Positions 1,309-22,564 of a stretch of DNA of 26,923 bases are shown here, in pieces. A program made the position numbers and the translations under genes. A model generated the notes under the pieces. That model did not search any database and had not been told where the DNA came from. It was given only the letters and a program-made list of their open reading frames with translations. The stretch's first letter is position 1; each line of letters starts with the position of its first letter. Location of the stretch: assembly GCA_036507075.1 (NCBI GenBank), contig DASXQR010000030.1, forward strand, positions 1 through 26,923. The letters run 5' to 3'. The stretch is from Acidobacteriota bacterium (lineage in GTDB: Bacteria; Acidobacteriota; UBA6911; JACQSX01).

Positions 1309-4020
1309 CTACTGGAAGTAGCCGCTCACGTCCAAAATGAAGTGAACTGTGCCCGCAGCCTGCGCAGTCCGCACATTCACCGCGCCTCCGTCACCTAGCT
1401 GCAGCAGCGCGTTATTCGCGCGCGTTAGTCCGGGTCTATAGTTTATGGTTGAGGCAAAAGCGGCAAAAATGCCCGTGGGATAAAGCCGAAGATCTCCCGC
1501 GGCGCTTGCGGCGGTCACGGTGACATTGGCAGCAACGGCTTTAGCTGTCATTGGCACGCCGCATTGGCCGGAAATGTTGAACGTGCGGTCGCTGTTCGCC
1601 GCCAGCGCGGGGCCGCCCTGGGGGCCGGCTGCATTGCGGGTGTCGGCAACGCGGCACGGCGTGAGGGTAAAAAAACCGGAGGTGGGCATTGTTTGGGAAG
1701 GGGCGATTTTTGTTAAGAACGCGTCCTGTATCCCTTTACGATTCGATTGCAGCGGGCGGGCGGTGGGAAAATAGGAAGAGGAGGTGGTACCGCACACGTA
1801 AACAACGTCGCTTGAGTCGACCACAATCATTTTCAGCAGATCGCTTTCGTCCCCTCCAAGATAAGTGGCAAAATCCAGAGATGTGCCCGATGGATGGAAT
1901 TTTGCGATAAACCCGTCGATTGCGCCGTTGTAGGCCTGCAGGGGACGGATCAATGGAAAATCCGGCGAAGAGGTCCAGCCCGAAACGTAAACACTGCCGC
2001 CAGGGCCGAGGACCATCCTGGTCGCCTGTTCGTACGACGTTCCACCGAGGTAGGTCGCGTATTCAATGGAGCGACGGTCCGGCGTGATCTTCAGAAGAAA
2101 TGAGTCGCTACTCGGCGTTGGAAAACGGTATGTGCATTCCGGGCAGGCAGCTTTGTAAGCATTGACGGTGGGAAAGTCATTTGAGTATGTGACTCCCGCC
2201 ACGTAAATGCTGGCGTTGGCGTCTACCGCCACCGCTGTTCCCTGATCATTACTTGTCCCTCCCAGAAATGTGGAAAAAACAAGGTCGTTTCCGGAAGGTC
2301 CGATCTGAGTTACAAAGGCGTCGGGGCAAAAGATAAACCCGGCTACCGACGCGCAATTGCCAAACTTTAAAGGTTGGAAGGTATCTTTTGTCGGAAAGTC
2401 GGCCGACACCGTCGCTCCGGTTACGTAGACATTGCCCGAGGCATCGACCGCGATTGAAGAGCCGATCTCGCCCTGGTTTCCACCCAAAAATCGGGAGTAC
2501 ACAAGTGAGTTTCCGACGGCGCTTATTTTTGTCACGATAGCATCTGAGCTACCGGCAAGGGCCTGCGTCGATCCGACAACTGGAAAGTCACTCGAATACG
2601 TTGTGCCGGTTAAATAGAGATTTTCCTGTGTGTCCAGCGCGACGCGCCCAAGAAACTCATCGAGTGACCCGCCCAGATAGGTTGAATAGATAAGCGCGGA
2701 GCCGGTCGGATTCAGTTTCGAAACCCAAATATCGCGGCCTCCCTGGAGCGCCGGCTGGAACGCATTGACAGTTGGAAAATTAGTCGACGCCGTTGCTCCG
2801 GCAATCCAGACGTTCCCGGAAGTGTCCACTGCCAGGCTAACTTCAGAATCGCCGTCGCTTGCATTGCCCCCCAGATAAGTTGAATAAAGAAGAACACCAG
2901 TCCCGCTGAACTTTGCCACAAACGCGTCGTAATCCAGGTCGAACGGATATTTCCCGGGCTGGTAGGATCCGGCAGTGGTAGGAAAATCTATCGATTTGGA
3001 CCTGCCTGCGACGTAAATGTTTCCCGCCCCATCCACCGCTACCGCATCGCCCTCGTCAGCTCCAGTTCCGCCCCAGTAGGTCGAAAAGACGATCACCGGA
3101 TCGATAATTACGGGCAGCCCGACGTCGTGAGCGCCCAGATCAAATCCAATCCGTCGCGGCGTAATTCGAATGTAGCGGCAGGCGACCTCGACTCTCGTTC
3201 CGGCCTTATACTGATACGCCACAGGCTTGTGCTGGAGAAGGCGTCCCAGCCTCCCTTGGACGACAAGGTTGCCCCCGCGATCAATCGCAACATTCGGCAA
3301 CCCGGGGCCGGTATTAAATTCCATTTCAATCTGTCGCGCATTGGCGCCTGCATCGACGTAAAAATCGTACTCAAGATGATCGGCACTTCCTGAATAAACC
3401 AGATCGATGCCCGGATAGATCTCTCGAAAACGGATACGCCGGTAATGTGGAACGTCCTTGACCCAGCGGAGCGGATCACTCCCGATGAAATAATGGCTTT
3501 TGCCGGGTAGCCGCTCTTCACCTTCTGCCGCGGCTGCGGTGTTACAGTTGCTGAAACGGATTTGCAGCGTTTCCGCGGCAACTCGGTGGTAGCTCACCTT
3601 CGATGGCCGGAAGCCGGGCGCGGGTGATCTGATATCAGGGCGTACACCGGAAAACGAGCGGTAAACCTGAGCGGTGAGTCTTCCAGGGCTAAAGAGCAAG
3701 GTGCGCGCTGCTTGACGCGCCACAAATGCTACGCCGGAAGGCGCCTGACCGATGTTCTCTTCAAATGAAAAGGTCCTCAGATAGTTTCCCGATTTCGCAG
3801 CTCTCAACTCCTGTGAGGGAGAGGAGTGATGATTGGCGGATGGTGGGCGCTGTTTTCCAGACCTGGACAGCGCTAGCTGCAAAGGACTTTGCGAGTAGCG
3901 TTGGTCAGGCAGCCGATACCGAGGCTCTCCGTTGCTGGAGCCAAAAGAAGTGCGCTGCGCGCTTATGCCGCACGGTGACAGCAAGAAAACCATTACCCAA
4001 AGCACCCAATGGGATGACAT
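1309..4020 (-). CDS. Secreted SBBP-repeat beta-propeller protein with the shared C-terminal domain
   Basis: Signal peptide MSSHWVLWVMVFLLSPCGISA with AGGGG RBS at ATG 4020 (ORF track starts at 4056). Typical N-domain FEENIGQ...IYPGIDLVY...LEYDF...IIDP; repeated STYLGG...AVDxSGNxYVxGxTxSxDFP units; C-terminal domain at 1309-1674. Confidence 0.88.
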   Translation of the reverse strand: MSSHWVLWVMVFLLSPCGISAQRTSFGSSNGEPRYRLPDQRYSQSPLQLALSRSGKQRPPSANHHSSPSQELRAAKSGNYLRTFSFEENIGQAPSGVAFVARQAARTLLFSPGRLTAQVYRSFSGVRPDIRSPAPGFRPSKVSYHRVAAETLQIRFSNCNTAAAAEGEERLPGKSHYFIGSDPLRWVKDVPHYRRIRFREIYPGIDLVYSGSADHLEYDFYVDAGANARQIEMEFNTGPGLPNVAIDRGGNLVVQGRLGRLLQHKPVAYQYKAGTRVEVACRYIRITPRRIGFDLGAHDVGLPVIIDPVIVFSTYWGGTGADEGDAVAVDGAGNIYVAGRSKSIDFPTTAGSYQPGKYPFDLDYDAFVAKFSGTGVLLYSTYLGGNASDGDSEVSLAVDTSGNVWIAGATASTNFPTVNAFQPALQGGRDIWVSKLNPTGSALIYSTYLGGSLDEFLGRVALDTQENLYLTGTTYSSDFPVVGSTQALAGSSDAIVTKISAVGNSLVYSRFLGGNQGEIGSSIAVDASGNVYVTGATVSADFPTKDTFQPLKFGNCASVAGFIFCPDAFVTQIGPSGNDLVFSTFLGGTSNDQGTAVAVDANASIYVAGVTYSNDFPTVNAYKAACPECTYRFPTPSSDSFLLKITPDRRSIEYATYLGGTSYEQATRMVLGPGGSVYVSGWTSSPDFPLIRPLQAYNGAIDGFIAKFHPSGTSLDFATYLGGDESDLLKMIVVDSSDVVYVCGTTSSSYFPTARPLQSNRKGIQDAFLTKIAPSQTMPTSGFFTLTPCRVADTRNAAGPQGGPALAANSDRTFNISGQCGVPMTAKAVAANVTVTAASAAGDLRLYPTGIFAAFASTINYRPGLTRANNALLQLGDGGAVNVRTAQAAGTVHFILDVSGYFQ

Positions 4021-4185
4021 GAAACCCCTGGAAGTAAATTTTAGCTTGTGGCACAAGGGTCGGCAATCAATCCATCTCTATCGAACCGGACAGTGGATCT
4101 GCCGGCCAGCGTGATCTGGGCCAGACGCATTCGGAGTGCTGAGACCGTGGAGAGATCCTTAGATAGTCCTTTACGAGGAGATCTC

Positions 4186-6147
4186 TTACTGGAAGTATCC
4201 GACAACGTCAATGATCACGTGCACCGAATCGGTGGGGGTTACTATCCAGACATAGACACCACCGTTAGCGATTCCGAGCGGAACGATGGCATTGTTCGCT
4301 CTGGTTCTTCCGTTGGACCAGTTGATCGTGCTGTTGCCTGCCCAGGAAGTGCCGGAGGGGAAAACGCGCGCGTCGCCAAAGGAGTCGCTGCGCGCAAAAC
4401 CGGTGACGGTAACATTCATCGCCACCGTTTTGGCTGTGACAGGGATGCCGCAGTTCCCAATAAGAATAAATTCGCGCTGCTGGAAAGCCGGAATAGCCGG
4501 ACCTCCGAGAGGGCCGTTGGGGTTTCGGGTGTCGACAACCCGGCAGGGTGTCAGCGTGAAAAACTGTTGCGGCACGGGAGCACATGTCGGCGTTCCCGGA
4601 ATGACACCGCGTCGGGTGGCCGGATTTTGATGGAAAGCCGGCCAAGGGGTGGCCGCCGTCGCGGATCCTGCCAGGTAGGCATAGACCTCCCCGTTGGCTG
4701 CGGAAGGAAACGGCGTTCCGCTCCCTATGATCACGTACAAGCTTCCATTGTTGTCCAGATTGGTTACGACGGCTCCCGATGTTGTAGTCTGCGTGAAGTA
4801 ACTGATTTTGCCAGGCTGATGCGTGCCGTCGTCGGTAATCTGGACGCCAGTCGAAGAGATGACGGCAATCTCGGTATTTGTAGCGACGAGGATGTCAAGA
4901 TTCCCGTCTCCGTCCACATCGGCGACGATTGGGTTGGACGCGTTGAAACTGTTGCCAAAAAAATCTTTGGGTTTTATCGATGTAAAAATCTGTGTGCCAT
5001 TGAATCGGAACGCATAAATGTTGGCGCTGTTGTCCGCGATGACCACATCCAGTTTGCCGTCTTTGTCAAGATCTCCGAGCGCCGGCGAGTTGAATACCTG
5101 ATCGGCTACATTTACCGGCCATCCCGGAAGATTTGTGCCGTCACAGCGGAACGCATAGACCTGCTTTCCCACGCCGGGAGTGGTGTAAAACGTCCCCCCG
5201 CCCACCACGATGTCTGGACGTCCGTCGCCGTCAATGTCGCCCACGGCCGGCGAGGACATGATCGTCTGGTTTACGAAGCGCGGAAAACCGGGCATTTCCT
5301 GCCCGTTCGGCAGGAAAACGTGCAGCCCTCCACCGTCGGGCGTATTGAAGGGCGGTCCCTCGGCATGCGTATCACAGCCGATAATGATTTCCAGCTTGCC
5401 GTCTCCTTTCAGATCCGCCAGAGCCGGTGAAGAGAAAGTCGTATCGCGCAGAAATTTCGGCCATCCGGCAAGTGCGGTGCCGTCTCGGGTGATGACATAC
5501 ACGTTAAAGTCGAAGCTTCCAAAGACGACGTCGTTGCGCCCGTCGCCGTCCACATCGCCGATTGCCGGACTTGAATAGACGCCGTCCGGAAGACCGTCAG
5601 CATTGGCATCCCCAGTGGTGACCGACCAGATCAAACCCGCCGTTCGTGTGTAGGCTCGAACTCCACCGCTTCCCGTGGGATCGGTCGTTCCTTTGAAGCT
5701 AACGACCACGTCGGCAAACCCGTCACCGTCGATATCACCGATGGCGGGGCATCCGACAACTTCGGCGGGAAGCGTAACAGGCCAACCTGCCAGAATCGTT
5801 CCGCCAGCGTTGATCACGTAGAGCTTGCGTCCCTTAGTCCCGACGACGATCTCTTTGACGCCGTCATTGTCCAGATCGCCGACAGCCGGCTGGGTGACCA
5901 CGATGGATCCGGAACCAGCAAGAACTTTGGGAAAGCCGGCGCGCTGGGCCGGAGTATTCGGAATTTGTGCACCTACTGTGGCTGTAAAGATTCCCCAAAG
6001 AACGATCGTAATTGCAGCGAAAGAATACCCAAAGCTTATTTTTGATGAGCCGGGGAGGAGCGAAGCGCCGAACAATCTGGCACGTTCGAAACGCGAAACC
6101 ACACAGCATGCCTCCCTGCGCGGTTCAGAGTGGCGGGTTTTCTTCAT
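4186..6147 (-). CDS. Secreted FG-GAP/VCBS (integrin-alpha-like, Ca-binding) repeat beta-propeller protein with the shared C-terminal domain
   Basis: Seven clear PA[VIL]GD[LIV]DxDGxx[DE][IV]V-type repeats plus one degenerate; WPAFHQNP closing motif; C-terminal domain at 4186-4563. Start codon uncertain. Confidence 0.88.
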   Translation of the reverse strand: MKKTRHSEPRREACCVVSRFERARLFGASLLPGSSKISFGYSFAAITIVLWGIFTATVGAQIPNTPAQRAGFPKVLAGSGSIVVTQPAVGDLDNDGVKEIVVGTKGRKLYVINAGGTILAGWPVTLPAEVVGCPAIGDIDGDGFADVVVSFKGTTDPTGSGGVRAYTRTAGLIWSVTTGDANADGLPDGVYSSPAIGDVDGDGRNDVVFGSFDFNVYVITRDGTALAGWPKFLRDTTFSSPALADLKGDGKLEIIIGCDTHAEGPPFNTPDGGGLHVFLPNGQEMPGFPRFVNQTIMSSPAVGDIDGDGRPDIVVGGGTFYTTPGVGKQVYAFRCDGTNLPGWPVNVADQVFNSPALGDLDKDGKLDVVIADNSANIYAFRFNGTQIFTSIKPKDFFGNSFNASNPIVADVDGDGNLDILVATNTEIAVISSTGVQITDDGTHQPGKISYFTQTTTSGAVVTNLDNNGSLYVIIGSGTPFPSAANGEVYAYLAGSATAATPWPAFHQNPATRRGVIPGTPTCAPVPQQFFTLTPCRVVDTRNPNGPLGGPAIPAFQQREFILIGNCGIPVTAKTVAMNVTVTGFARSDSFGDARVFPSGTSWAGNSTINWSNGRTRANNAIVPLGIANGGVYVWIVTPTDSVHVIIDVVGYFQ

Positions 6148-6252: not shown

Positions 6253-6729
6253 TTATTGGAAATACCCGGTCACGTCCACAATTACATGGCAAGCGCCGGG
6301 GACGGCTGTTCCGTAAACTATCGTCAGGTTCAAGCCGCTGGGATCGCCGGTCGTGAGCGGCACAATCGCTCCATTCGCCAGGGCTGACTCACCGGCAACA
6401 AAGTTAATCGTCGAAACCAACGGCTGGGAAGTGTTGTACGGATAAAGCATCAGGAAACCATCGGCCGTGGGTGTCACAACAGTGACGTTCAAGGCAACTG
6501 CTTTTGCGGTTCCCGGAATTCCGCAAAGTCCGGTGATAGGAAAGCCGCGAGGCTGTCCTGAATTCATCGCCGGGCCTCCCGTGGGACCGTTCGGATTACG
6601 AGTATCCACAATTCTGCAGGGCGTCACGGAAAAGAACTGAAAAGGCCCGGCAGGTTCAACCGCGGGCGAGCCGAGCAGAATAATGGCGATGATAAGAAGC
6701 GCAGACCGCAGGAAGCGACTCTTTGTCAT
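6253..6729 (-). CDS. Secreted protein made only of a signal peptide plus the shared C-terminal domain
   Basis: AAAAGGGGA RBS; signal peptide MTKSRFLRSALLIIAIILLGSPA; domain FFSVTPCRIVDTR...DVTGYFQ at 6253-6636. Confidence 0.88.
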   Translation of the reverse strand: MTKSRFLRSALLIIAIILLGSPAVEPAGPFQFFSVTPCRIVDTRNPNGPTGGPAMNSGQPRGFPITGLCGIPGTAKAVALNVTVVTPTADGFLMLYPYNTSQPLVSTINFVAGESALANGAIVPLTTGDPSGLNLTIVYGTAVPGACHVIVDVTGYFQ

Positions 6730-7026: not shown

Positions 7027-7326
7027 CTAAAGGGCGGGAATTTTCTGCTCTCGGTGTAACTTGCCCACCACGTCGTTACTCAAGCCGTAAAATACAACAA
7101 ACTGCTGGACTCGGAAGGACTGAAACGGCGTGCCGGTGCTCCAGAGATAACGTTCTAAGTCCTGCGCCTCTGAGTCATACAGCACGAAGGCAGGGTTTGG
7201 ATCTTGCACGACAATGTCCCGGTATCGAGCCACACGAGTCGGGTAAGCACCGAATGGCGTCGAGATTATTTGCTCATTAGATTCGAAGGCAAGTCGATAT
7301 GCCACCCAGTAACTGGCATAAACCGA
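7027..7326 (-). pseudogene. 3' fragment of a GT-C paralog (soluble C-terminal domain only)
   Basis: SVYASYWVAYRLAFESNEQIISTPFG...DPNPAFVL matches the 1-519 protein. Homology stops abruptly at ~7326 with no upstream start. Confidence 0.75.
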
Positions 7327-8239
7327 ATCGGGCTTCTGGCGGCCGGTTACCTCGCCGTACCGCCCTATTTCTTTTTGTATAAGGGCCTGACATCGGACGG
7401 CGCGTACGATGCCGTTGCGGTCTTAGGGACGTTCCTCCTCTATGCGGCGCTGCGACTGGAAGAATCACTGCGGCGCTCCAGAGACGGCCGTCTGTGGATT
7501 ACGCTTCTGGGTTTGGCCGCCGGGCTGGGCTGGTGGGTCGATCCGTTAATAGTCTACTTTTATCTGGCGGTACTGATCTGGTTTGTCGTCGTCAGACCTT
7601 CCGTCTTCGCGCATCTCTCGTTCTACCCTCTTTTTGCCGGCGCATTTTTTTTGGGCGGTTTTCCATGGTGGCATAATAATATCCGTTTTTCATGGCACAG
7701 TCTGACCGCTCCGGAATTGGCGGTCGCTTCTATGGCCGGGGCGTCTGCTTGCCGCGGGGCTGCTGGCGATGGCTTTGTTTTCCAGTGGGCGAGGGCTGTT
7801 TCTTGCGGATAAATACGACGATTATTTGGATCGCACGAACAATGGTCCACTTTCGGACCTGCTTAAGGAACTGGACAGACGAGGTTTGAGGTCAGTTTAT
7901 GCAGGTTACTGGGTTGCCTATCGTCTCAGTTTCGAGTCTGGAGAACGTGTCATTGGCACCCCGTTCGGCGCGTGGCGACATACGCGGGTGTCTCGTTATC
8001 AGCAGAGCGTCTTTCTTGACCCCCGGCCTGCGTTTGTACTTGCCGGGCCCGAAGTCTATGAGATGCTTCACTACCTGCGCTCCCGAAATGCTTCTTTCTC
8101 AAAGTTCACACTGCCTCCCTTTGAAGTTTTCTATGACGTGGCCCCCAATGCCTTGGAGACTCTGCGACAGAATCTGGATGTGCCCAAAGTTGAAGGGAGC
8201 AGTTATTCGAAATATCCGTTGACATCAATGATCAGGTGA
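7327..8239 (+). pseudogene. Internally deleted, frameshifted GT-C (ArnT/PMT-like) paralog
   Basis: 7327-7729 encodes internal TM helices (IGLLAAGYLAVPP...GLAAGLGWWVDP...GGFPWWHNN). From 7730 another frame matches window bases 43-516 (LWPGRLLAA...YWVAYRL.FESGERVI.TPFG...LRQNLDVPK). No N-terminus; reads past the ancestral stop into the 3' end of the convergent protease gene. Confidence 0.78.
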
Positions 8240-9894
8240 ACGGTGCCGGAACCCTGGTCGCTGTGCACGGAAAGTGTGCCGCCTGGGCCGAGCGGAATAA
8301 TCGCACTATTGGCCCTCGTCTGCCCGGCGCGGTAATTGATGGTTGAAGTGTTGGGGACGCTCGAACCGCCCGGATAAAATCGCAAATTCCCGAGCGCGGT
8401 GGCCCCTGTCACCGTTACATTCAGTGAAAGCGACTTGGCGGTGCCGGGCACCCCGCATACTCCGGCCAGCGTGAAAGTCCGGTCGCTGTTGGCGGAAAGA
8501 GCAGGCCCGCCGAAAGGACCATTCGGATTGCGCGTGTCTACCAGGCGGCATGGAGTGAGCGTAAAGAAGTTGCTGGCTGTCGGAGTTATAACTACTCCGG
8601 GATAAACGAATTGAGCCGCTGCGATGTCATCGGCGCGGGGAGAAGCGCCGCGGCCGTCATTATGGGCCAGGTAGTACATCAAGGCGTCCTTCAAAACCGG
8701 ATTCAGCTCATTCGGATTCTCGGAAGAATGGTCAAAACCGATTCCATGTCCCACTTCATGTCCGGTGACCTGTGCCAGGTTGTTCGACACGGCGAGAAAA
8801 CAGTTCATTCCATTGGCGAATACGATGTCTGCCTGAAACAGCGGCTTAAAGTTAACGCCGTTGACAATGCGGTTGCCCATTGCGCCGAACTGGATGTAAG
8901 TAACAGCGAGTGTTCCGGCGCATCCTACCGGATCTTGGATAATCCCCTGCGGATCCCCGAATGTGATTACGTTGGTCCCGTCGCCAAAATTCTGTCCGCT
9001 GAGAGCTGTTTGTCCGCCGTCGCTCAACACGATGTGAGTTGCCGGGATGCTGTTCCAAGCCTGCAGGGCGCTATCGATAGCTGCAATGGTGTTGGAAGGT
9101 GAAAGCGGGGCATTGGTCGTATTTACATAGAATGGAACCGCGATGCTGCTGTCGAATTGATGCCAGCGCACGCCTCCCGCTTCTAAAGTGAAGAGTCGAC
9201 CTGGAGGAAAATTGTCACCCTTCCTCCGCCTGGAGGCAGTCCCATCGCTGACAAGGCTGGCATAGGAAAATTCCTGCAGCTCTTCTGACTCGCGCAGCTT
9301 CATCTGCGTCACAAAATCGTTGGGCCTGGTTTCCTTCCTCCGGCGAGCTGCAGCCCGATCTACTTCCTGAATAGATCTCAATTGGGTTGCAGGCGTACCA
9401 AGCACCAGCGTGCCTGCAGGCGTTTCCTGCTTCAAGTTAGCAGAATCGACTGTGAATTTGCCCTGAAAAAGGTGGGCCGCTCGAAAGAAGCCATCGCGCA
9501 TCAATTCCGAAAAAACCACCACTTCCTCGCCGACGAAAAATTCAGGCGATCCAAAAACCCAACTCGCGTTATGGTGGAAACGCCCTCCCAGTTGCTTTAA
9601 GTAAATCGTTGTACCCTTATTCAGGTGACCGAAAAACTCCCGCTCTACTGAAATTGCGATGAAGGTGTAAATGTTGCCATCGTCTTGCGGCGCACTCTGA
9701 ATACTGGTAACACGCCCCAGTACTATCGCGTCGGAGCTCGATGCCAGTGCATCAGGCGAAAGCGGAATAACGCTGCTGGCCCGGGAGTTCTGCCAGAAAA
9801 ACACCACGGCAAGAATGAGCAGGCAAACGCGTCTGCAGAGGTCCCCAGCCCTTCGTTCAGGCCTGTCAGATCTGACTAATTTCGGTTCAGGCAT
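8203..9894 (-). CDS. Secreted matrixin-like (M10/metzincin) zinc metalloprotease with the shared C-terminal domain
   Basis: HEVGHGIGFDHS (HExxHxxGxxH) and Met-turn ALMYY; signal peptide; C-terminal domain at 8203-8568. Confidence 0.88.
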   Translation of the reverse strand: MPEPKLVRSDRPERRAGDLCRRVCLLILAVVFFWQNSRASSVIPLSPDALASSSDAIVLGRVTSIQSAPQDDGNIYTFIAISVEREFFGHLNKGTTIYLKQLGGRFHHNASWVFGSPEFFVGEEVVVFSELMRDGFFRAAHLFQGKFTVDSANLKQETPAGTLVLGTPATQLRSIQEVDRAAARRRKETRPNDFVTQMKLRESEELQEFSYASLVSDGTASRRRKGDNFPPGRLFTLEAGGVRWHQFDSSIAVPFYVNTTNAPLSPSNTIAAIDSALQAWNSIPATHIVLSDGGQTALSGQNFGDGTNVITFGDPQGIIQDPVGCAGTLAVTYIQFGAMGNRIVNGVNFKPLFQADIVFANGMNCFLAVSNNLAQVTGHEVGHGIGFDHSSENPNELNPVLKDALMYYLAHNDGRGASPRADDIAAAQFVYPGVVITPTASNFFTLTPCRLVDTRNPNGPFGGPALSANSDRTFTLAGVCGVPGTAKSLSLNVTVTGATALGNLRFYPGGSSVPNTSTINYRAGQTRANSAIIPLGPGGTLSVHSDQGSGTVHLIIDVNGYFE

Positions 9895-10904: not shown

Positions 10905-11010
10905 TTATTGAAGATACCCATTCACATCGATTGGCGCCCTCGACATCCACACGATAAAGATTCCACCTGCCCGTCGGGTCATTTGTCTGCGACACGCCGA
11001 TCAGAATTAC
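10905..11010 (-). pseudogene. Collapsed middle and C-terminal remnant of a paralog of the 18519-20627 gene
   Basis: ILIGVSQTNDPTGRWNLYRVD (cf. VCIGASQTSDPTGQWNLFRFD) joined out of frame to IDVNGYLQ-stop (10905-10931), the end of the shared C-terminal domain. Confidence 0.7.
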
Positions 11011-11141
11011 CCCTTCCAACCCGCGAAATTTTCCTTGTGAGATCCCTCCCTGGAGAGATAGGCCTAACGAAACCAGTAAAGAATTTCCCCTCCTATGGCT
11101 TGGCAATGCAAGAAATCAATCAAAAAAGAGGAGATTTTGAA

Positions 11142-11411
11142 ATGACACCAGGACTGACGCGTACTGGTAAACCGATTGCTCTTTTCCTCAGTATCTGGCT
11201 TTTGGCGGCTGCCTTTGTAGCTGCGGCGGAGCAAGGACGAACGGGGCGTTCTGCCGATGGAGAATCCTCCCTTTTGCCGCCGCTGTCAGCCATGATGAAG
11301 CGCGATTTGGGCGAGCGGGAACCCGACGAGAACGGTCCTTGGACTCCGCGGATGCTGAAGCTTGCCGGAAGCCCGGGGATGCTGCAACCTCCAGATCGGA
11401 AAAATTCATGA
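11142..11411 (+). pseudogene. 5' fragment (RBS, signal peptide, N-terminus) of a paralog of the 16859-17968 gene
   Basis: AAGAGGAG RBS; signal peptide MTPGLTRTGKPIALFLSIWLLAAAFVAAA; then SADGESSLLPPLSAMMKRDLGEREPDENGPWTPRMLKLAGSPGMLQP, nearly identical to 16972-17114. Homology ends at ~11391. Confidence 0.8.
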
Positions 11412-11529
11412 CCGACTTCTGGCTTGCCACAAAGGAGTCTCCCCTGATTGGGTCTTCGGCGAAGAGGTAAGTTTTCCCCAGGATCGAGCAGGCGATAACA
11501 ATCAGAGCTGCGGCATAATTCGATTTCAT
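11392..11529 (-). pseudogene. 5' fragment (signal peptide) of a secreted-protein gene, probably the start of the 10905-11010 remnant
   Basis: GAGG RBS; signal peptide MKSNYAAALIVIACSILGKTYLFA; VMNFSDL weakly resembles TVNFDQL of the 702-aa protein; runs head-on into the 11142 fragment. Confidence 0.55.
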
Positions 11530-11842: not shown

Positions 11843-13465
11843 TCACTGGAAATAGCCGTTTACATCCAGGATGAAATGCACTGTCCCCGCTGGCATGTCG
11901 CATCGCACCGCCAGTGTTCCACCGTTCCCAAGCGGGATCACAATGTTGTTGGCTCGTGTCTGCCCTGTCCTGAAGTTGATGTTTGAAACGAGAGGAAGGC
12001 TGGTGCCGCCGGGATAGAGCCTGAGATCGCCAATATTGGTGGGCTGGGTAACTGTGATATTTCCAGAGATCGCTCTTGCCGTGATCGGTATGCCGCACTG
12101 GGTTGCCACCGTAAAAGTCCGATCCGTGTTGGCCGAAAGCGCAGGCCCGCCGTAGGGGCCGGCGGCGTTGCGGGTATCGGCGACGCGGCAGGGAGTCACA
12201 GTGTGAAAATTGACGCCGGCGGGAACGCCCGACTTCGGATAGATGAACGAGGCCCCTCCGATGTCATCCAGCCGTACGGAGGCTCCCCGGTTGTCGTTGT
12301 GGGCAAGAAAGTACATTAAAGCGTCGGACAGCAGCGGGTTTGGCTCCGATGGATTCTCGGAAGAGTGATCCAGCCCGATTCCATGCCCTACTTCGTGCGC
12401 GGTTACCTGGTCCAGGTGGTTGTCGGTCGCAAGAAAACACCCCGCTCCATCGTTAAAAACGATATCCGCATCGAGGAGTTGGAAAAAACTGACCGAGTTT
12501 ACCGTTTGAGCGGGTGATCCGAAACGCATGAAAGCGGTCGCGAGAGTGCCGACGCAGCCAACAATCGGGTCCATTTCGTTGTCAGGATCGTTAAACAAGA
12601 TCACGTTTGTGTTGTCCAGGGCGTTGCGGGCCGCGATGGCTGTTGTGCCTCCGTACGAAAGGAAAATTTTCGCGGTCACGATATTGTTCCACGCCTGCAA
12701 GGCATTGGTCACTGCAGTCGCCGTAGTCGCGGAAGTAAGCGGCGAGCCTGTCGGATTCAGAAGGAAAGGCACCAGGACCGAGCTGTCAAATTGATGCCAG
12801 CGAAACTGAGCGGGGGAGGGGAGGGTAAAGTATTTCTCGCCGGAGTCTGCTTTCTGGTTTCTTACTTCCAGAGATGTGCTGATTCCTTGCAGCGAGAATT
12901 CCCTCAGAGGAAGGGAATCCGGCAAGTCCAGTTCCCTTCGGTACGGGCCGAGTGGAAGCGCCGGGAAGTCCCTGGTTGCGTCGGCGATCTCACTCAGATT
13001 TTCGAAGCGACGGACCTCCGCTCCCAATACGCGAGCGCCTGGAGCCGAATCCGGACGCAGCCTTCCTGATGGCATTACGTTGAATTTTCCCTGGAACAGG
13101 TCGAGTACCCGAAAGAAACCGTCCGGCATGAGCCTGAGCAGCACTACAACATCTTCGCCTTCTGCAAACTCGGCCGACCCGAATGCCCACGCCCCTTCCG
13201 CGCCGTATCTTCCCCCGAACTGTTTTACGTAGATACTGGTGCCGTCGGGAATCTGGCGGAAGAAATCCCGCTGGACCGCCAGCTCGATAAACGTATCAAT
13301 ACTGCGAGCGCTTCGCACGCTTCGAATCGAAGTCACGCGACCCTGCACAACGGCGTCCGCCCGTGCGATCAATTGCTCCCGGGGCACCATGATGACTGTT
13401 GTGGCCCCGACACTTTGACTGGAGAGGAGGAAAAGAGACGCAGCAACGATCTTTCGTATCCACAT
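11843..13465 (-). CDS. Second secreted matrixin-like zinc metalloprotease with the shared C-terminal domain
   Basis: HEVGHGIGLDHS and ALMYF Met-turn; full-length paralog of 8203-9894; signal peptide MWIRKIVAASLFLLSSQSVGA (ATG 13465; ORF track TTG 13522); C-terminal domain at 11843-12208. Confidence 0.88.
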   Translation of the reverse strand: MWIRKIVAASLFLLSSQSVGATTVIMVPREQLIARADAVVQGRVTSIRSVRSARSIDTFIELAVQRDFFRQIPDGTSIYVKQFGGRYGAEGAWAFGSAEFAEGEDVVVLLRLMPDGFFRVLDLFQGKFNVMPSGRLRPDSAPGARVLGAEVRRFENLSEIADATRDFPALPLGPYRRELDLPDSLPLREFSLQGISTSLEVRNQKADSGEKYFTLPSPAQFRWHQFDSSVLVPFLLNPTGSPLTSATTATAVTNALQAWNNIVTAKIFLSYGGTTAIAARNALDNTNVILFNDPDNEMDPIVGCVGTLATAFMRFGSPAQTVNSVSFFQLLDADIVFNDGAGCFLATDNHLDQVTAHEVGHGIGLDHSSENPSEPNPLLSDALMYFLAHNDNRGASVRLDDIGGASFIYPKSGVPAGVNFHTVTPCRVADTRNAAGPYGGPALSANTDRTFTVATQCGIPITARAISGNITVTQPTNIGDLRLYPGGTSLPLVSNINFRTGQTRANNIVIPLGNGGTLAVRCDMPAGTVHFILDVNGYFQ

Positions 13466-13711
13466 AAGGCGCAGCGCCGAGGCTGATAATCGTGACTTAA
13501 ACCATGCCAAAAACGAGTGCAATGAATCACATTTGGTGCCGAATGAGCGAGCTGGTACTTAGTTACGTCGCTGCTGAAGCATTCTCGGGTTGATGCCAGA
13601 TTTGGAACAGCTGGAATTCAGATCAAAGTTCCGGCTCTGGGAGCCGGCAAACTCCGGTCCTCCATAAGGTCCATTAGGATTGCGTGTATCAACAAGCGAA
13701 CCCAAATGACC

Positions 13712-14319: not shown

Positions 14320-14926
14320 TCAAGACGGAAGAGCGGACACTTCCTCGATCGCAGCGCGATAAACATGGGTCACATTTTCCCAGGAATACCTGGCTGCGAC
14401 ATACTTCCGCCCGACGGCACCCATCCGGGCGGTCAAATCAGGATCTTTAACGAGCCGGCAGAGCGCCCAGCGAGTCTGCATCATCGAACAAGAGGCCTCC
14501 GCCGCTGTCCTGGATATGCCGCTCCATTACTTTCGAGCCGCGTCTTGCCACGACCGCCTTGCCATGAGCCCAGGCTTCGAGCGCCGACAGGCTCAGGCTT
14601 TCGTAAAGAGAAGGCAGGATCAGCGCGACGCAGTTGCCGACAAGCCAGTTTTTCTGTGATTCGTCTACTTCTCCCAGCAGGTGAACGGCCGGATGCAGCG
14701 GCACCTTCATCACCGGAGTGCCTGCCAGCGCCAGTGTATAGCTGCCTGAAGCGTCTCGACCCGACTGCACTCCATGTCCATCCAAAAACCATTCGGTCAG
14801 TTCCTTAACTCCTTTATTAATATCCACGCGCCCGAGATACAGGAAAAACTCCCCCGACTGCAGTTGCCTCGCGAAAGCTGCCGGTTTTTGGTCTTTTGCT
14901 TCCGCTGATGGCAGTTCCACTCCGGC
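14320..14926 (-). pseudogene. C-terminal half of a GT4 glycosyltransferase, frameshifted; paralog of 22760-23962
   Basis: FFLYLGRVDINKGVKELTEWFL...PSLYESLSLSALEAWAHGK. A ~5-nt deletion near 14455-14467 shifts to the frame LVKDPDLTARMGAVGRKYVAARYSW...IEEVSALPS-stop. N-terminal domain absent. Confidence 0.82.
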
Positions 14927-16540: not shown

Positions 16541-16858
16541 AATGCATCAGCAGAATTCAGAGCGATTATACGATGTCGCCGCGAACCCGGCCAACTACGC
16601 GATATTGCGACCCATGTTCTCTTAGGGTTTGTCTTTGGACATTTCTAACGAACGACTCTGCCGCCTCAGTACCGCATCCGTCAGCAGGTGTGAAAAAATC
16701 GACGCCACCGGGCTTGGAACGTGAGAAGAAATCGAAGAGGAGTTGCGGCTATGCCGCCCCTCGTGCGGAAAGGCTCTGCCTTTCCGGGCGATGCCCTCCA
16801 TCCTTTCTCGGCAAACCGAGGCTGGGCCTCGGTTTGCGAGAAAGGAAGAATGTGAAGA

Positions 16859-17968
16859 ATGGCGCTGCCATTGCGTGAAATTTTCCTTGTGAAGTGTCTC
16901 GCTGGAGGGATAGGCTTGGCTGAGCAAAAAAACGCATTGCCCCCCCCATGGCATTGGCAATCCAAGAAATCGCGCTCTGCCGACGGGGACTCCCTGCTGC
17001 CGCCGCTGTCGGCCATGCTGAGGCGCGATTTGGGCGAGCGGGAGCCTGACGAGAACGGCCCGTGGACTCCGCGGATGACGAAGCTTGCCGGAAGCCCGGG
17101 GATGCTGCAACCTCTGCTCGTGCAACCGAACGATTTCACCTACCTCAAAGTTATTGGAACAGCATTTTCACCGCGCAAGAGCACATCGACATACGACTAT
17201 GTTTCCAACGGTTGCATTTTCCAGAACGGCGGCTCCGATTTCCGGTTTCAGACCCCTCTGCTGCTTCCCGAGGGGGCGTCGCTCAAGTATGTTCGCTTAT
17301 ACTACGTCGACACGGCAGCGACGGACATGACCGTCTGGCTCACAAAGTACCAGCCGGGGCAGTCGAACGTCGACATCGTCAGCGTGCAGTCGGCCAACGC
17401 TACTGGCTACGGCACGACCCTGAGCAAGCTGATAGGAGGTCCTGACCCGGGGGACCCGCCGGCGGAGATTGTAGACAACGCCACCAACGCATACGTGCTG
17501 ACCTGGGGAACGAGTGTCGCAAACAACACGAACCAGCTCTGTGGCGTGCGCGTGGCATACTATCTGCCGGCTCCCGGCGAGTTCAACCCGATCACGCCCT
17601 GCCGCGTCTTTGATACCCGCGCCGTGGGTCCGCAGACAACAGGAGCGCCTCTCGCAAATCCGGGCCCGTACAACTTTCGGATCCAGGGTAACTGCGGCAT
17701 CCCAAACGGCGCCAAGGCGGTCGCCCTGAATGCCACAGTGGTGACACCGACCCAGGGTGGTGACCTGCGGCTCTTTCCCGCCGGAGGCCCGCTGCCGGGC
17801 GTTTCGGTGATGAACTATCCTGCCGGGATTGCCGCCATCGCCAACGGCGCTGCCGTGCCTCTTGCCGCCGTGGCCGTCCCGACGGACAAGGACCTGGCTG
17901 TCGTGATCGGAATGGCCGCGAGTGGAACGCTGCACCTGATCATCGACGTCACCGGCTACTACTACTGA
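16859..17968 (+). CDS. Protein with an unknown beta-rich domain plus the shared C-terminal domain; native RBS, start and signal peptide deleted (possible pseudogene)
   Basis: C-terminal domain at 17582-17968 (FNPITPCRVFDTR...DVTGYYY). Bases 16873-16971 match the upstream non-coding DNA of the 11142 paralog, and the 128-bp leader (11118-11245) is absent at 16971/16972. Confidence 0.7.
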   Translation: MALPLREIFLVKCLAGGIGLAEQKNALPPPWHWQSKKSRSADGDSLLPPLSAMLRRDLGEREPDENGPWTPRMTKLAGSPGMLQPLLVQPNDFTYLKVIGTAFSPRKSTSTYDYVSNGCIFQNGGSDFRFQTPLLLPEGASLKYVRLYYVDTAATDMTVWLTKYQPGQSNVDIVSVQSANATGYGTTLSKLIGGPDPGDPPAEIVDNATNAYVLTWGTSVANNTNQLCGVRVAYYLPAPGEFNPITPCRVFDTRAVGPQTTGAPLANPGPYNFRIQGNCGIPNGAKAVALNATVVTPTQGGDLRLFPAGGPLPGVSVMNYPAGIAAIANGAAVPLAAVAVPTDKDLAVVIGMAASGTLHLIIDVTGYYY

Positions 17969-18054: not shown

Positions 18055-18461
18055 GTAGAGACGCCCCGGTGGGCGTCTGCTCCGGAGTCAAACAACACCT
18101 CTGCAGAAGACGGCCCATCGGGCCGTCTCGCGAGCCCGCGCGGTAGGAATCTCCCAGTTCCACGCCCGTCAGTACCGCGGGCGTGAGCCCGTGTGCGGCA
18201 AATCTCCCCAGCTTTACCGCCGTCAGTACCGCAGCCACTACGTGGTGGCACACGGGTCGAAACCCTGGTACTGACGACGCTGGAGTTGGGTTGATTCGTC
18301 TCGCACGGGCTGACGCCCGCGGTACTGACGGGCGTGGAGCTGTTCCTCCTTATTCGAAGGACATAACTGGCCACCCTTATTATTTGCGAAGAATTTTTGG
18401 CATGGGACAGGCTTTCGCCCGCATTCCGTCCCATTCTATGAGACGTCCTTCAGGACGTCTC
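18055..18461. repeat. REP-like palindrome cluster between convergent genes
   Basis: GTAG-footed hairpin gtag-agacgccc-cggt-gggcgtct at 18055; hairpins 18108-18128 and 18440-18461; 39-bp inverted pair 18155-18193/18304-18342 (2 mismatches) enclosing two more partial gtcagtacc units. Same families as 1010-1235. Confidence 0.82.
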
Positions 18462-18518
18462 TCCACGCGGCGAAGCCGCGCGCTGGCGAAGCACTCGCCG
18501 ACGCTTGTCAGGTTTCCG

Positions 18519-20627
18519 TTACTGAAAGTAGCCGTTGACATCCAAAATGAAATGAACTGTGCCGGAGGTTTGGACGCACCGCACGGTGAATGCTCCGCCT
18601 GAGCCGAGAACAATGATGGCGTTGTTGGCGCGGGTTTGGCCGAGCCGGTAGTTTATCGATGATGTATTGGGTATGGCAGTTCCGGTTGGATAAATACGCA
18701 GGTCTCCAGCAGCGGCAGTCGGCTGTGTGACCGTAAGGTTGACGGAAATGGCTTTGGCAGTGGAAGGAATGCCGCACTGGCCGGCCGCCACAAAGGACCG
18801 GTCCGCATTAGCAGACAGGGCCGGGCCGCCAAATGGACCGTTGGCATTACGGGTATCTAAAACGCGGCAGGGGGTCAGCGTAAAGAAATTACTGCCGGTA
18901 ACGGCCGCAGGAGGAACAATCTGTCCCCACCATGTTCCCCAACGGTCGAAACCTCCAGAGGGTGCAGCCGCATACTCCTGTATCGTCCACATGTCCGCGT
19001 CGTTAAGCGGATCCATCACAGTCTTGCTGTAATCGCCCCACCGGTTTTCGGTCCCTGAAAAAGTCTTTACGTACAGGGCCTCGCCGGCCTTCAGTGCCAC
19101 GTCATCCTGAAGCGTATTGGCGGGATCGGTTGCGCTTCGGAACGAGTAAGCTGCGCTCGCAAATTGAGCTGACGAAAACCGCGAGTAGCCGATCAACATG
19201 TCGCCGTTCTTGTTCACCGTGAGGCTGGGATAAGCGAAATGTTTGCCCCCGTTTGTTTGTGTAGCCGTTGGATCTTCGATTCTTCCCTGTTGCAGGATCG
19301 CGGTGCTGGAAGGATTGGAATCCAACTGCCACCACTGCGCGGCCGCGCGGGTGGGAGTAATACCCGCAGGAAGCGTGACATTCTGAGCGCACCAGACTGA
19401 AGTCACCCCGCCCACGGTTCGCACCACTACAGACTGCATTCGCGCATCTCCCACGTCAATCCTGCGGGCAGTGCCACTCTGGGGCAAGAATTCACCAGAT
19501 GGAACCGCCCACGATCCAAGACCGGAGGTGATGATTGCCGTATTCAGAGTAAGTGTCGGCGCAGACGGAGGTGATCCGACCAGCGTGGACTTGCTGATAG
19601 TTCCAGAGGCGCTGCTGATGTGGCGCACCAGGAAGACCGTATTGGAAATATTGTCGTAGGTCACGGCGGGCACCAGCGTAAAAGGAATAGTGACGGAGTT
19701 GAATGTGAAACCGGATCCGGTGTTGGCGTAAACACCGGCTTTGTCGAAAGCATACACCTGGCCGCGGACAAAGGCATTGGCGGCGTTGGTGAACATGTTG
19801 ACCGAAACGACGATCCAGTCCTTGTTAAACCCGAGTGTCGGATAATCGGCCCATAACGTATCGGTGTTATCAGCATCGAAACGAAAAAGATTCCACTGGC
19901 CGGTGGGATCGCTCGTCTGGCTTGCGCCGATACAGACCGACGAATTGCCGTTTTCCGGATCAGACACGATTGCAAATATCCACCGGTTCGCGAAGGGATC
20001 GTACAACACGTGAGGATCTGTTGTTCCAGTTGAACCTGCCGGAAGCACAGGGCTCCAGAAACTAAAGGTCGAAGTAGTGCTGACAGTTGCACCCGCCGGC
20101 CTTGACTGAATTCGCACCTGGGAATTCAGCGCGACCATCAGGTGGTTTGGACCCACGGCGCCGTTTGTATCCGGCGGAATAGTCGTGTTGTTGTCATTGA
20201 GCGCTTGAAAGCTTGATGTCGCTGGAGGGGAGACTACCGACCGTGGGACAACACCTTCTCTCTTTGCCGCTTCGCTACCGGGAGGTTTTACATCTGAAGG
20301 CAAAGGCACATCGTTGGGATCTCGCAGGAACGGATGAACAACATGCGGCTCAGGCAAGGTCGGAAGCACTAATTGCGCCTTGGATAATTGATCGAAGTTA
20401 ACTGTGGCGGAATCGGTCGGAACAACGGGTTCCCCGGCCAGTTCAATCCCGGTTTGCTGGCCTGTGGGCGCCCCGGTCCTGCTCTGTGCTCCGGCAAACA
20501 TCCACAATCCCACATAGTGCAGAAGGGCTATCGCTGCGGACAACCGAATCCAGACTGGGACTAACGTGCAATGTCTGGATCGGGCTTGGCCTTGGCGTCC
20601 TGCGGATGCGCGCACAGTTTTTCTCAT
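18519..20627 (-). CDS. Secreted 702-aa protein with an uncharacterised beta-rich (probably propeller) domain plus the shared C-terminal domain
   Basis: Long signal peptide; motifs PPDTNGAVGPNH, DPHVLYD...RW, DYPTLG, RWGDYS...DP...WTIQEY; C-terminal domain at 18519-18887. Confidence 0.85.
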   Translation of the reverse strand: MRKTVRASAGRQGQARSRHCTLVPVWIRLSAAIALLHYVGLWMFAGAQSRTGAPTGQQTGIELAGEPVVPTDSATVNFDQLSKAQLVLPTLPEPHVVHPFLRDPNDVPLPSDVKPPGSEAAKREGVVPRSVVSPPATSSFQALNDNNTTIPPDTNGAVGPNHLMVALNSQVRIQSRPAGATVSTTSTFSFWSPVLPAGSTGTTDPHVLYDPFANRWIFAIVSDPENGNSSVCIGASQTSDPTGQWNLFRFDADNTDTLWADYPTLGFNKDWIVVSVNMFTNAANAFVRGQVYAFDKAGVYANTGSGFTFNSVTIPFTLVPAVTYDNISNTVFLVRHISSASGTISKSTLVGSPPSAPTLTLNTAIITSGLGSWAVPSGEFLPQSGTARRIDVGDARMQSVVVRTVGGVTSVWCAQNVTLPAGITPTRAAAQWWQLDSNPSSTAILQQGRIEDPTATQTNGGKHFAYPSLTVNKNGDMLIGYSRFSSAQFASAAYSFRSATDPANTLQDDVALKAGEALYVKTFSGTENRWGDYSKTVMDPLNDADMWTIQEYAAAPSGGFDRWGTWWGQIVPPAAVTGSNFFTLTPCRVLDTRNANGPFGGPALSANADRSFVAAGQCGIPSTAKAISVNLTVTQPTAAAGDLRIYPTGTAIPNTSSINYRLGQTRANNAIIVLGSGGAFTVRCVQTSGTVHFILDVNGYFQ

Positions 20628-20835: not shown

Positions 20836-20973
20836 GATGGGCTATGCCGCACTGGTTTGCCACCGTAAAAAGTCCGATCCGTGTTTGTCGAAAGCGCGGG
20901 CCCGCCGTATGGGCCGGCGGCGTTGCGGGTATCGGCGACGCGGCACGGAAGTCACGGTGTGAAAGTTGATGCC
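20836..20973 (-). pseudogene. Isolated, frameshifted fragment of the shared C-terminal domain
   Basis: INFHTVT/PCRVADTRNAAGPYGGPALSTNTDRTF/TVANQCGI/PI with three 1-bp insertions; closest to ~12081-12215 of the second protease. Confidence 0.8.
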
Positions 20974-21127
20974 TGCGAGAGCGCCGGCGCGGCAATCGTT
21001 TCGGTAATTCCGATCACGTAATCCAAAAGTGTGCTCGCCCGCACACAGAGGATGGGGGTCGATCAGGCTACCATCATTCCAAAATCACTAATTTTCCGCG
21101 ACGCGTAGGAGTTGGGAAGGCTTTTTT

Positions 21128-22564
21128 ATGAAGTCCTCCATACTGTGTTTCCTGTGGACTACTCTGCTGGTTTGCCAGGTCGCTGGTCCTGCGCATGCCG
21201 CCACGGTGAAACTGGCTTGGGATCCCAATACCGAACCTGACCTGGCTGGATATAACGTCTACCGATCTCAGACGTCAGGATCGGGCTATTCACGTCTCAA
21301 CGGTGGTTTAGTTCTCACCCCTTCTTACAATGATGCCGCGGCTGGGAGCGGTCAGACCTACTTTTATGTGGTCACAGCCGTCAATGCGCTTGCATCGGAG
21401 AGCGGTTTTTCCAACGAGGTAACGGCTGTCGTTGGGTTCCCCGATCTGGCGATCAGCAAGACCCATGCCGGCAGTTTCCCCGTTGGCGCCAATGGTCTCT
21501 ACACGGTGACGGTGAGCAATGTTGGATCTGCTGCCAGCAGCGGAACGATCACGGTAACCGATACACTGCCCATCGGTCTGAGCTTTATTTCGGGCTCGGG
21601 CACAGGCTGGAGCTTCGCGGCTTCCGGCCAGACAGTTACCTGCCTCAACACTGGATCCGTTGCTGCAGGCGCCAGCAGCGTCTTTACCCTGACAGTCGGT
21701 GTCGGGTCTGCAGCCTTTCCGGCCGTCACGAATATTGCCGCCATTTCGAATTTGAGTGACCTGAATCCGGCTAACAACAACGCAAGCGACCCGACGACGG
21801 TTACGCAGCCTCCCCTGACACCTGACCTGGCGATCAGTAAGAGCCACAGCGGCAGCTTTAGAGTGGGCACAAATGGCGTCTACACGCTGACGGTGACCAA
21901 TGTTGGTTCTGCCGCCAGCAGTGGAACGATCACGGTGACCGATAACCTGCCCGCCGGTTTGAGCTTTGTTTCAGGTGCTGGCACAGGCTGGATCTGCGCG
22001 GCTGCCGGCCAGGTGGTTACATGCACCAACACTGGATCCATTGCTGCTGGCGCGAACAGAGTCATTACGCTGACAGTGAGCGTCGGCGCTGCAGCCTTTC
22101 CATCCATCACAAATGTTGCTACTGTGTCGAATTCGAGTGATCTCAATTCAGCTAACAATAACGCAAGCGACCCGACGATAGTCACCCAGGCGACCTATTT
22201 TTATACGCTCACGCCCTGCCGAGTGCTCGACACTCGGAATCCGAACGGTCCTTTCGGAGGGCCCGCTCTGGTCGCTGGCGCAACTCGCACTTTCACGATA
22301 TCCGGCCGGTGCGCTATTCCCTCAACAGCTAAAGCGGTTTCCATAAACATTACCGTCACAGCGGCAACCGTTGATGGGCATCTCCGGCTCTACCCGGGCG
22401 GTACTCCGCTTCCTCTGGTCTCCAGTATCAACTATCCGGCCGGAAGAACGCGCGCCAACAACGGCATCATTACTTTAGGTGCGCTTGGAGATATTGCTGT
22501 CCGCTCTTTCCAACCCTCTGGTACGGCGCACTTGATTATTGATGTGAACGGCTACTTCCAGTAA
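21128..22564 (+). CDS. Secreted FN3 plus 2x DUF11 (Ig-like) repeat protein with the shared C-terminal domain; adhesin/stalk-like
   Basis: Signal peptide ending GPAHA; FN3 LAWDPNTEPDLAGYNVYRS...YFYVVTAVN...ESGFSNEV; two DLAISK...YTxTVxNxG...VTDxLPxGLSF...DLNxANNxASD units; C-terminal domain at 22199-22564. Confidence 0.88.
   Translation: MKSSILCFLWTTLLVCQVAGPAHAATVKLAWDPNTEPDLAGYNVYRSQTSGSGYSRLNGGLVLTPSYNDAAAGSGQTYFYVVTAVNALASESGFSNEVTAVVGFPDLAISKTHAGSFPVGANGLYTVTVSNVGSAASSGTITVTDTLPIGLSFISGSGTGWSFAASGQTVTCLNTGSVAAGASSVFTLTVGVGSAAFPAVTNIAAISNLSDLNPANNNASDPTTVTQPPLTPDLAISKSHSGSFRVGTNGVYTLTVTNVGSAASSGTITVTDNLPAGLSFVSGAGTGWICAAAGQVVTCTNTGSIAAGANRVITLTVSVGAAAFPSITNVATVSNSSDLNSANNNASDPTIVTQATYFYTLTPCRVLDTRNPNGPFGGPALVAGATRTFTISGRCAIPSTAKAVSINITVTAATVDGHLRLYPGGTPLPLVSSINYPAGRTRANNGIITLGALGDIAVRSFQPSGTAHLIIDVNGYFQ
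21440..22189 (+). repeat. Intragenic direct duplication (381-bp period) encoding the two DUF11 domains
   Basis: 21440-21808 and 21821-22189 align colinearly at DNA and protein level. Confidence 0.9.

Follow-up and report, generated by a model that had tools for sequence, protein, structure and literature searches.

A jelly-roll domain shared by unrelated secreted proteins of Acidobacteriota and predicted to work as a three-fold unit

Introduction

Several described systems place one small element on many otherwise unrelated secreted proteins. An anchor of SLH or CWB2 cell-wall-binding modules is pseudo-trimeric and consists of three copies in tandem. The type IX secretion system C-terminal domain (T9SS CTD), PEP-CTERM, LPXTG and dockerin each represent a shared C-terminal element on secreted proteins that have little else in common. 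Beta jelly-rolls are appended to enzymes in the carbohydrate-binding module (CBM) families CBM6, CBM35 and CBM36, and they form the subunits of compact C-terminal trimeric heads in TNF and C1q and in the spore proteins BclA and ExsF. Here, a domain of about 122 residues is described that terminates eight open reading frames (ORFs), named A to H, in one stretch of Acidobacteriota DNA. This stretch, the window, is a whole contig of 26,923 bases (C30) from a genome of 6.1 Mb in 233 contigs.

Of the described structures, the closest is the tip at the C-terminus of Bd2133, a 'mosaic adhesive trimeric' (MAT) fibre of Bdellovibrio bacteriovorus (PDB 8OK3 and 8OND). According to the excerpts of PMC10769870 on which this account draws, the tip is the C-terminal sandwich W913-K1031, of about 119 residues, with a fold that was then uncharacterised. 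It is a trimer around a central strand, with ions on the three-fold axis and a pocket at the trimer interface that is occupied by a peptide in the crystal, and on the fibre it takes the position of a chaperone domain (PMC10769870, same excerpts).

The domain of the window resembles SLH and CWB2 as a modular, non-catalytic unit that is carried by many unrelated secreted proteins, at either end of the chain, and that would work as three copies. The resemblance is an analogy and not membership: the fold is another one, there is no sequence match, and the single copies found here would have to assemble from three chains. The domain shares with the T9SS CTD, PEP-CTERM, LPXTG and dockerin elements its place at the end of secreted proteins, but it has no model match, transmembrane tail, motif or adjacent partner machinery of their kind, and its family includes tandem, N-terminal and stand-alone forms.

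The shared terminal domain and its family

A sequence-only reading of the window had proposed that eight ORFs share one terminal domain. With a profile of the eight copies all of them were recovered, at coordinates that had been right to within the stop codon (Table 1). The domain copies are 42-67% identical to the first copy, with 31 invariant columns in the alignment of the eight, and the pair of cysteines that the reading had pointed to is kept in 8/8. At the nucleotide level, the segments that encode them share only 55-67% identity; the copies are therefore old paralogues and not an assembly artefact. The same range rules out that the tails were recently duplicated or homogenised by gene conversion. 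All eight proteins end in DVxGY[FY][QEY] followed by the stop codon, and in the model of gene C this end lies within a beta-strand. No hydrophobic tail or known sorting motif was seen at the C-termini of the eight proteins. As judged by eye, seven of the eight begin with a signal peptide, N-terminally basic and then hydrophobic, as had been read before; the exception is F, which has lost the segment.

The passengers are diverse. The sequence-only reading was borne out by Pfam for DUF7948 and SBBP, FG-GAP, matrixin-like and DUF11 domains, but the FN3 domains that it listed went undetected at E<=0.01. Genes D and E are paralogues, 48% identical in the cargo and 64% in the domain. In C, F and G no Pfam cargo families were detected, and the passenger parts of G (~580 residues) and of F (~240 residues; 16859-17580) belong to no Pfam or NCBIfam family.

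The domain itself, which had been put forward as undescribed, matched no characterised domain in Pfam, NCBIfam or the PDB sequence profiles. Pfam gave no match over the domain in the eight proteins and none at E<=1 in 51 stand-alone members, where CBM, SLH and CWB2 were also missing, and NCBIfam gave none. Among the PDB sequence profiles the best E value was 0.14 with profile A1 and 0.0075 over 38 residues with profile A2, which was judged chance; weak rows of Lactobacillus S-layer proteins were returned with A1 at E 0.3-0.45. A PF05124 match in one relative covers only 33 residues. The protein atlas, with Pfam 38.1 annotation, has no family over the domain and returned only unnamed Acidobacteriota clusters. 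A search of the full-text literature (open-access papers and preprints) on the Bd2133/MAT fibre topic and on jelly-roll C-terminal domains of Acidobacteria found no paper on the domain.

The family is large. When the eight-copy profile was run against 1.84 billion cluster representatives, at least 36,013 were matched at E<=0.001 and 26,123 at 1e-10. Among the relatives, 1005 are cargo-less proteins of a length similar to that of gene C, composed of a signal peptide and the domain. Others bear catalytic domains of the glycoside hydrolase families GH10, GH16, GH18, GH44 and GH113, and the remaining cargo, in relatives and window together, includes metalloproteases, an S41 protease, CAP, propellers, DUF11 and PKD. 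The family is thus modular and uncatalogued, and it is found on unrelated secreted cargo.

Predicted fold and nearest structures

Gene C was chosen for the structure model and for the trimer prediction. The model was built from an alignment with 51 stand-alone relatives and reached a predicted local distance difference test (pLDDT) of 89.8 and a predicted template modelling score (pTM) of 0.76. It consists of a signal helix and a nine-strand sandwich, so that the domain is predicted to be a beta jelly-roll.

The structural comparison with VIA-align placed the Bd2133 tip first: 8ond_B was matched with Z 10.2 and a root-mean-square deviation of 2.8 A over 110 residues, and 8ok3_A with Z 10.1 over 107 aligned residues. 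All other rows had Z <= 8.2 and comprised viral coats, CBM35, CBM36 and CBM6, the Pgp3 C-terminal domain, the BclA head, and the P5 and P1 knobs of PRD1 and PM2, respectively. Foldseek returned the same mixture for the gene C model. In BFVD, the fold search found only weak sandwiches from phage fibres, collagen heads and coat proteins, with template modelling (TM) scores <= 0.55.

The Bd2133 tip and the present domain have the same sandwich topology across the whole ~120 residues, and both form the very C-terminal end of a secreted protein. The trimer of Bd2133 has been solved, whereas that of the present domain is predicted only. Identity in the structural alignment is 11-12%, and 8OK3 and 8OND were not listed at E<=10 by profiles A1 and A2. 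The surroundings also differ: the Bd2133 tip caps a beta-helical fibre, whereas the domain is found on SBBP and FG-GAP propellers, on metalloproteases, on DUF11 proteins or alone, and a tandem-triplet form is undescribed for Bd2133.

The CBM6, CBM35 and CBM36 jelly-rolls are of similar size, and their Z of 6.5-7.8 lies in the tool's range for a common arrangement. Unlike them, the domain has no sequence membership in these families, its conserved residues concentrate in the predicted subunit interface, and it would form a three-copy unit.

A predicted three-fold unit

A complex prediction, the copy numbers within single chains and the model of a three-copy chain point to the number three. When three copies of residues 28-158 of C were predicted together, the homotrimer score was 0.97 in 3/3 runs, against 0.02 for the best of three controls. 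In the calibration, this mark had been attained by 20 of 30 proteins whose solved structures are pairs of one chain, and by 1 of 23 with solved single-chain structures. Contact agreement between the trimer runs was >=98%, with a partner pLDDT >=96. The predicted interface is formed by residues 28-39, 76-83, 90-111, 114-124 and 150-157 and takes in the motifs FxTxTPCR, NxTV, SxINY, AN and DVxGY. Contacts between copies at 32-32 and 119-119 would indicate a three-fold axis lined by an invariant Phe and an invariant Asn. Invariant columns make up 16/46 of the interface and 15/82 of the rest (one-sided Mann-Whitney p 0.011, from eight paralogues). The invariant residues outside the interface include D42-T43-R44, G52, F63, C69, P72, A75 and H148.

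The sequence-only reading had described the domain as always single and always last. This is correct for the window, and in the close loci as well all family ORFs are single-copy, with 125/136 terminal; family-wide it does not hold, as tandem triplets and N-terminal placement occur. Among the best 150 of the 36,013 relatives, ranked by summed score, 132 chains have three copies, 14 have six, one has nine, two have five and one has eight; none of these 150 has four or seven. The last copy ends <=10 residues from the C-terminus in 140/150. A search with the three-copy module recovered 7,695 proteins of 274-874 residues at E<=1e-10, one of them named Candidatus Korobacteraceae.

The model of a three-copy chain of 395 residues (pLDDT 94.2, pTM 0.91) is predicted to be one compact, rigid body. 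Its top Foldseek matches are engineered single-chain trimers of C1q, adiponectin and APRIL-BAFF (TNF family), with E from 3e-6 to 9e-5, and VIA-align gives Z 5.9-6.0 for the C1q and TNF trimers over about 200 of the 395 residues. The likeness is unproven. With TNF, C1q, BclA and ExsF the domain would share jelly-roll subunits in a compact C-terminal trimeric head, as far as the prediction goes; it differs from them by a poor global superposition and has neither a collagen-like stalk nor a sequence relation.

Both Actinomycetota plasmid proteins that were opened, from Curtobacterium (2845-6054) and Streptomyces globosus (2484-3920), carry three copies. One protein ends in its triplet, which follows a PKD part; the other has the triplet directly behind the signal peptide and before a cutinase-family cargo. 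In the printed alignment, 3/3 copies of the Curtobacterium triplet are without both cysteines. The cysteines that are invariant in the window probably form a disulfide, because both have been lost together in the Curtobacterium copies, as such a pair would predict. In a tree of single and triplet copies, the single-copy domains form a clade apart (33/34, support 0.97), and the triplet copies cluster by position only partly; this pattern does not single out copy 3 of the triplets as the source of the single copies.

Distribution and place in the genome

In contigs from one genome per species, 572 stretches with the domain were confirmed, and the best 75 loci were used for the locus analyses. 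All but one are from metagenome-assembled genomes (MAGs) of Acidobacteriota, labelled Thermoanaerobaculia, Vicinamibacteria, Holophagales or at the phylum level alone; the remaining one is an Acidithiobacillales MAG. Among plasmids, 25 Actinomycetota records were matched by tblastn at 31-43% identity (Streptomyces 19, Arthrobacter 2, Curtobacterium 2, Paenarthrobacter 2). The sequence-only reading had named similar domains in both phyla, and both have now been found to contain them.

The close loci resemble the window. None of the 136 family ORFs has more than one copy, and in 125 of them at most 10 residues follow the domain; with the 140/150 best relatives, this amounts to a strong terminal bias. 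Between 2 and 8 family genes are found in 27 of the 75 loci, so the clustering in the window is typical. After overlap filtering, 131 family genes remained, of which 11 are cargo-less (<=210 residues); such genes occur in 9/25 multi-copy loci vs 0/50 single-copy loci. A secretion bias was also seen, by a crude heuristic, with 83/131 family genes scored as secreted vs 102/520 neighbours. In the domain tree, C groups with stand-alone copies from other genomes, and D and H with copies from other genomes, whereas A, E, G and the copy on a second contig of this genome (C11) are mutual neighbours.

A profile search of the genome found nine full copies: eight on the contig of the window and one on C11, in a protein composed of GSDH, DUF11 and the domain. 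The motif PCRxxD[TS]R has 10 sites in the six-frame translation of the genome, which correspond to the nine full copies and one relic, with no orphan 'first-strand' tails among them. The domain was not found in 30 other genomes that belong to the family, order or class of this one, and it is patchy in the phylum, with 10 of 300 other sampled genomes containing it. One of these ten, flagged as unpublished, also served as a comparison genome for the orthologues described next, and no other result draws on it. Mis-binning of the contig is ruled out by its composition, which is typical of the genome, and by its last gene for a glycosyltransferase of family GT4, the orthologues of which are 69% and 63% identical in same-family genomes vs 35-36% in domain-bearing genomes. 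The contig is thus native to the genome.

In one same-family genome, G002, an X-like GT2 gene and the GT4 genes Y, Z and ZZ (Table 1) are adjacent (contig C50, 14.8-19.8 kb), with no F-G-H block between them; the block therefore looks inserted between X and Y. The B-like FG-GAP protein of G002 has a different C-terminal part. Because the family is missing from the 30 relatives, the F-G-H block from G002, and the tail of B from its counterpart there, the family looks like a lineage-specific acquisition that was followed by local duplication and decay.

Possible role of the domain

The explanation that we favour, at about even confidence, is that the domain is a trimeric jelly-roll knob, which would multimerise secreted cargo and, by binding outside the cell, tether or target it. 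The extracytoplasmic jelly-roll of ~122 residues would work as a three-fold unit. In the window proteins, with one copy each, the tails of three chains would come together as a trimeric knob. Single chains of other lineages, with three copies in tandem, would form the same knob intramolecularly. The knob would be a self-contained, non-catalytic head. A short linker rich in proline connects it to secreted cargo of unrelated kinds, which includes propellers, metalloproteases and DUF11 proteins here and glycoside hydrolases in other carriers. Most likely the knob would serve to bind an extracellular target, e.g., a polymer of the cell envelope or matrix, and this binding would hold the cargo at or near the surface of the producer. 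The single-copy forms would additionally turn the cargo trivalent.

From the trimer prediction and the copy numbers we infer that the three-fold knob is the functional unit. The triplet proteins retain the knob although it would not oligomerise their cargo; a function of its own is therefore probable, most simply ligand binding at or between the subunits, by which it may tether or target the cargo. A role in surface anchoring or assembly is plausible.

Several points weigh against this explanation. The domain has no known binding partner or ligand, and the excerpts of PMC10769870 report no glycan match for the Bd2133 tip. The trimer is a prediction, obtained with its own alignment and three copies, unlike the two-copy calibration, and since a similar trimer, that of the Bd2133 tip, had already been solved, the pass may partly be fold memory, though the identity is 11-12%. 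One- and two-copy proteins cannot appear in a list of 150 ranked by summed score. The three-copy model superposes poorly on the single-chain C1q and TNF trimers (TM 0.22-0.26). The glycosyltransferase neighbourhood of the window is not conserved, GT2 being present in only 3/75 loci; the glycosyltransferases are therefore local context and give no clue to the ligand.

It is improbable, to a degree that still calls for attention, that the domain serves assembly alone, with a tail that merely nucleates trimerisation or higher-order assembly and binds nothing else, like the C-terminal knobs of fibres and spore-surface proteins. The predicted homotrimer (0.97 vs 0.02) and the location of the most conserved motifs within the predicted interface are what such a domain would show, and the nearest fold, at the end of a trimeric fibre, replaces a chaperone domain (PMC10769870, excerpts). 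In 147/150 best relatives, however, 3, 6 or 9 copies per chain satisfy the unit internally and leave the cargo monomeric, and the module is still kept. Cargo-less proteins are conserved as well, the cargo of the window consists of propellers and proteases, not fibres, and 15 of the invariant residues are not part of the predicted interface.

Slightly less probable again is a carbohydrate-binding module or lectin, which would bind an environmental polysaccharide and bring enzymes to their substrate rather than to the surface of the producer. The GH10, GH16, GH18, GH44 and GH113 catalytic domains of the relatives would suit this role, as would the jelly-roll CBMs among the structural matches, but Z 6.5-7.8 is within the tool's common range for unrelated sandwiches. 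By sequence no CBM family was matched, even at E<=1, and the cargo is much broader than glycanases. An obligate three-copy unit is, to our knowledge, not typical of CBMs.

Very improbable is the export or sorting system that the sequence-only reading had proposed, in which a dedicated transporter, peptidase or transferase reads the domain as a tag in the style of the T9SS CTD, PEP-CTERM or LPXTG: the terminal position and secreted cargo in the window and close relatives (125/136) and cargo types like those of known tag systems agree with it, but tandem sets of 3, 6 or 9 copies, placement directly after a signal peptide, cargo-less proteins, C-termini with no transmembrane tail or sorting motif, the lack of any match to T9SS, PEP-CTERM, dockerin or SLH models, a stable 120-residue fold predicted to form trimers, unlike a cleaved signal, only nine carriers in two places of a 6.1-Mb genome (eight of them on one 27-kb contig) and no recurrent partner gene in 75 loci all argue against it. 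The partner transporter, peptidase or glycosyltransferase that had been anticipated was sought among 824 genes that had been called crudely in the 75 loci and then clustered; no non-family neighbour recurred beside the domain beyond a Ser/Thr kinase in 8 loci, MacB/FtsX in 5, CysNC in 4 and GT2 in 3.

A combinatorial variant of the trimeric knob may also be considered, which we regard as improbable. The clustered single-copy genes would encode interchangeable subunits of mixed trimers, and cargo-less proteins of the C type would fill vacant sockets of a three-socket scaffold or cap the knob. If this were true, one knob would carry up to three different cargoes, e.g., a protease, a propeller and a DUF11 protein. 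Such an arrangement would represent an extracellular enzyme scaffold, a minimal cellulosome-like one, built on a jelly-roll trimer, and the tandem triplets would be its 'hard-wired' version with a single cargo.

Decayed copies and other features of the contig

Four relics are present in the window, namely three domain remnants and a truncated sister of gene F (Table 1). The two that had been read earlier, at 20836-20973 and 10905-10931, are both real, and the one at 13604-13696 is additional. The relic upstream of gene G contains one in-frame TGA plus frameshifts, and its DNA is 94-96% identical to 12089-12194, the start of the gene E domain, of which it is a recent partial copy. A fragment similar to gene G persists at about 10.9 kb.

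Gene F is without ~128 nt that encode the ribosome-binding site, the ATG and the signal peptide in its sister copy (16780-17160 vs 10980-11420). As the sister keeps the signal-peptide segment, the ancestor of gene F was secreted too. The two appear to be differently decayed copies of one secreted-protein gene, and gene F may be decaying.

Table 1. Features of the window, with positions on its 26,923 bases
Feature	Position	Strand	Description	Basis
Gene A	1309..4056	-	signal peptide, DUF7948 and SBBP beta-propeller repeats; C-terminal domain 1312-1674	Pfam, profile
Gene B	4186..6147	-	FG-GAP repeat protein; C-terminal domain 4189-4566	Pfam, profile
Gene C	6253..6729	-	cargo-less, 158 residues, signal peptide and domain only (6256-6639)	profile
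Gene D	8203..9894	-	matrixin-like metalloprotease, Pfam match slightly under cut-off; C-terminal domain 8206-8571	
Relic	10905..10934	-	last domain strand and stop, 9 residues (PIDVNGYLQ-stop); adjoins gene G-like fragment	
Truncated sister of gene F 5' end	10980..11411	+	retains ribosome-binding site, start codon, signal peptide	
Gene E	11843..13522	-	matrixin/reprolysin-like metalloprotease, Pfam match above cut-off; C-terminal domain 11846-12211	
Relic	13604..13696	-	domain positions 10-40 (…DTRNPNGPYGGP…), directly upstream of gene E; missing from the earlier list	profile
Gene X	14978-16540	-	GT2-methyltransferase fusion; GT2 residues 18-188, class I methyltransferase residues 291-442	
Gene F	16859..17968	+	N-terminal part without known family; C-terminal domain 17579-17965	
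Gene G	18519..20627	-	secreted protein of 702 residues, no Pfam/NCBIfam family; C-terminal domain 18522-18890	
Relic	20843..20963	-	first ~35 residues of a domain copy; profile match 20865-20963	
Gene H	21128..22564	+	signal peptide, two DUF11 domains; C-terminal domain 22199-22561	Pfam
Gene Y	22760-24073		GT4 glycosyltransferase	
Gene Z	24232-25515		GT4 glycosyltransferase	
Gene ZZ	25602-26771		GT4 glycosyltransferase	

The two halves of the fusion gene X match separate frames in relatives from other genomes. Beside X lies a fragment of the GT4 gene Y (14469-14734 vs 22908-23173, 266 nt, 76% identical). A 300-nt duplication, 78% identical (43-342 vs 7730-8029), joins a 5'-open ORF at the start of the contig, 1-519(+), to a fragmented region of multi-pass membrane protein upstream of gene D, with ORFs at 7204-7812(+) and 7769-8239(+). 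Neither duplicate has a Pfam family, and the pair resembles a duplicated membrane protein gene of which one copy is broken. Intergenic tandem 8-9-mers, in arrays of GGAGGGAT and CACGAATTA, and long inverted repeats with arms of short tandem units are found at 26760-26922, 25519-25599, 24082-24258, 18155-18342 and 13712-14190.

Significance

Secreted hydrolases, proteases and adhesin-like proteins across two major soil phyla carry this family, which has no Pfam or NCBIfam entry in the copies that were searched. Through it, the orphan fold of the Bd2133 tip would gain a large set of structural relatives. The three-fold unit represents a concrete hypothesis that can be tested cheaply, through trimers, mixed trimers and ligand binding. 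Recognition of the domain would also help to annotate thousands of exoproteins that are now labelled 'hypothetical' in Acidobacteriota, a phylum whose surface biology is almost unknown.

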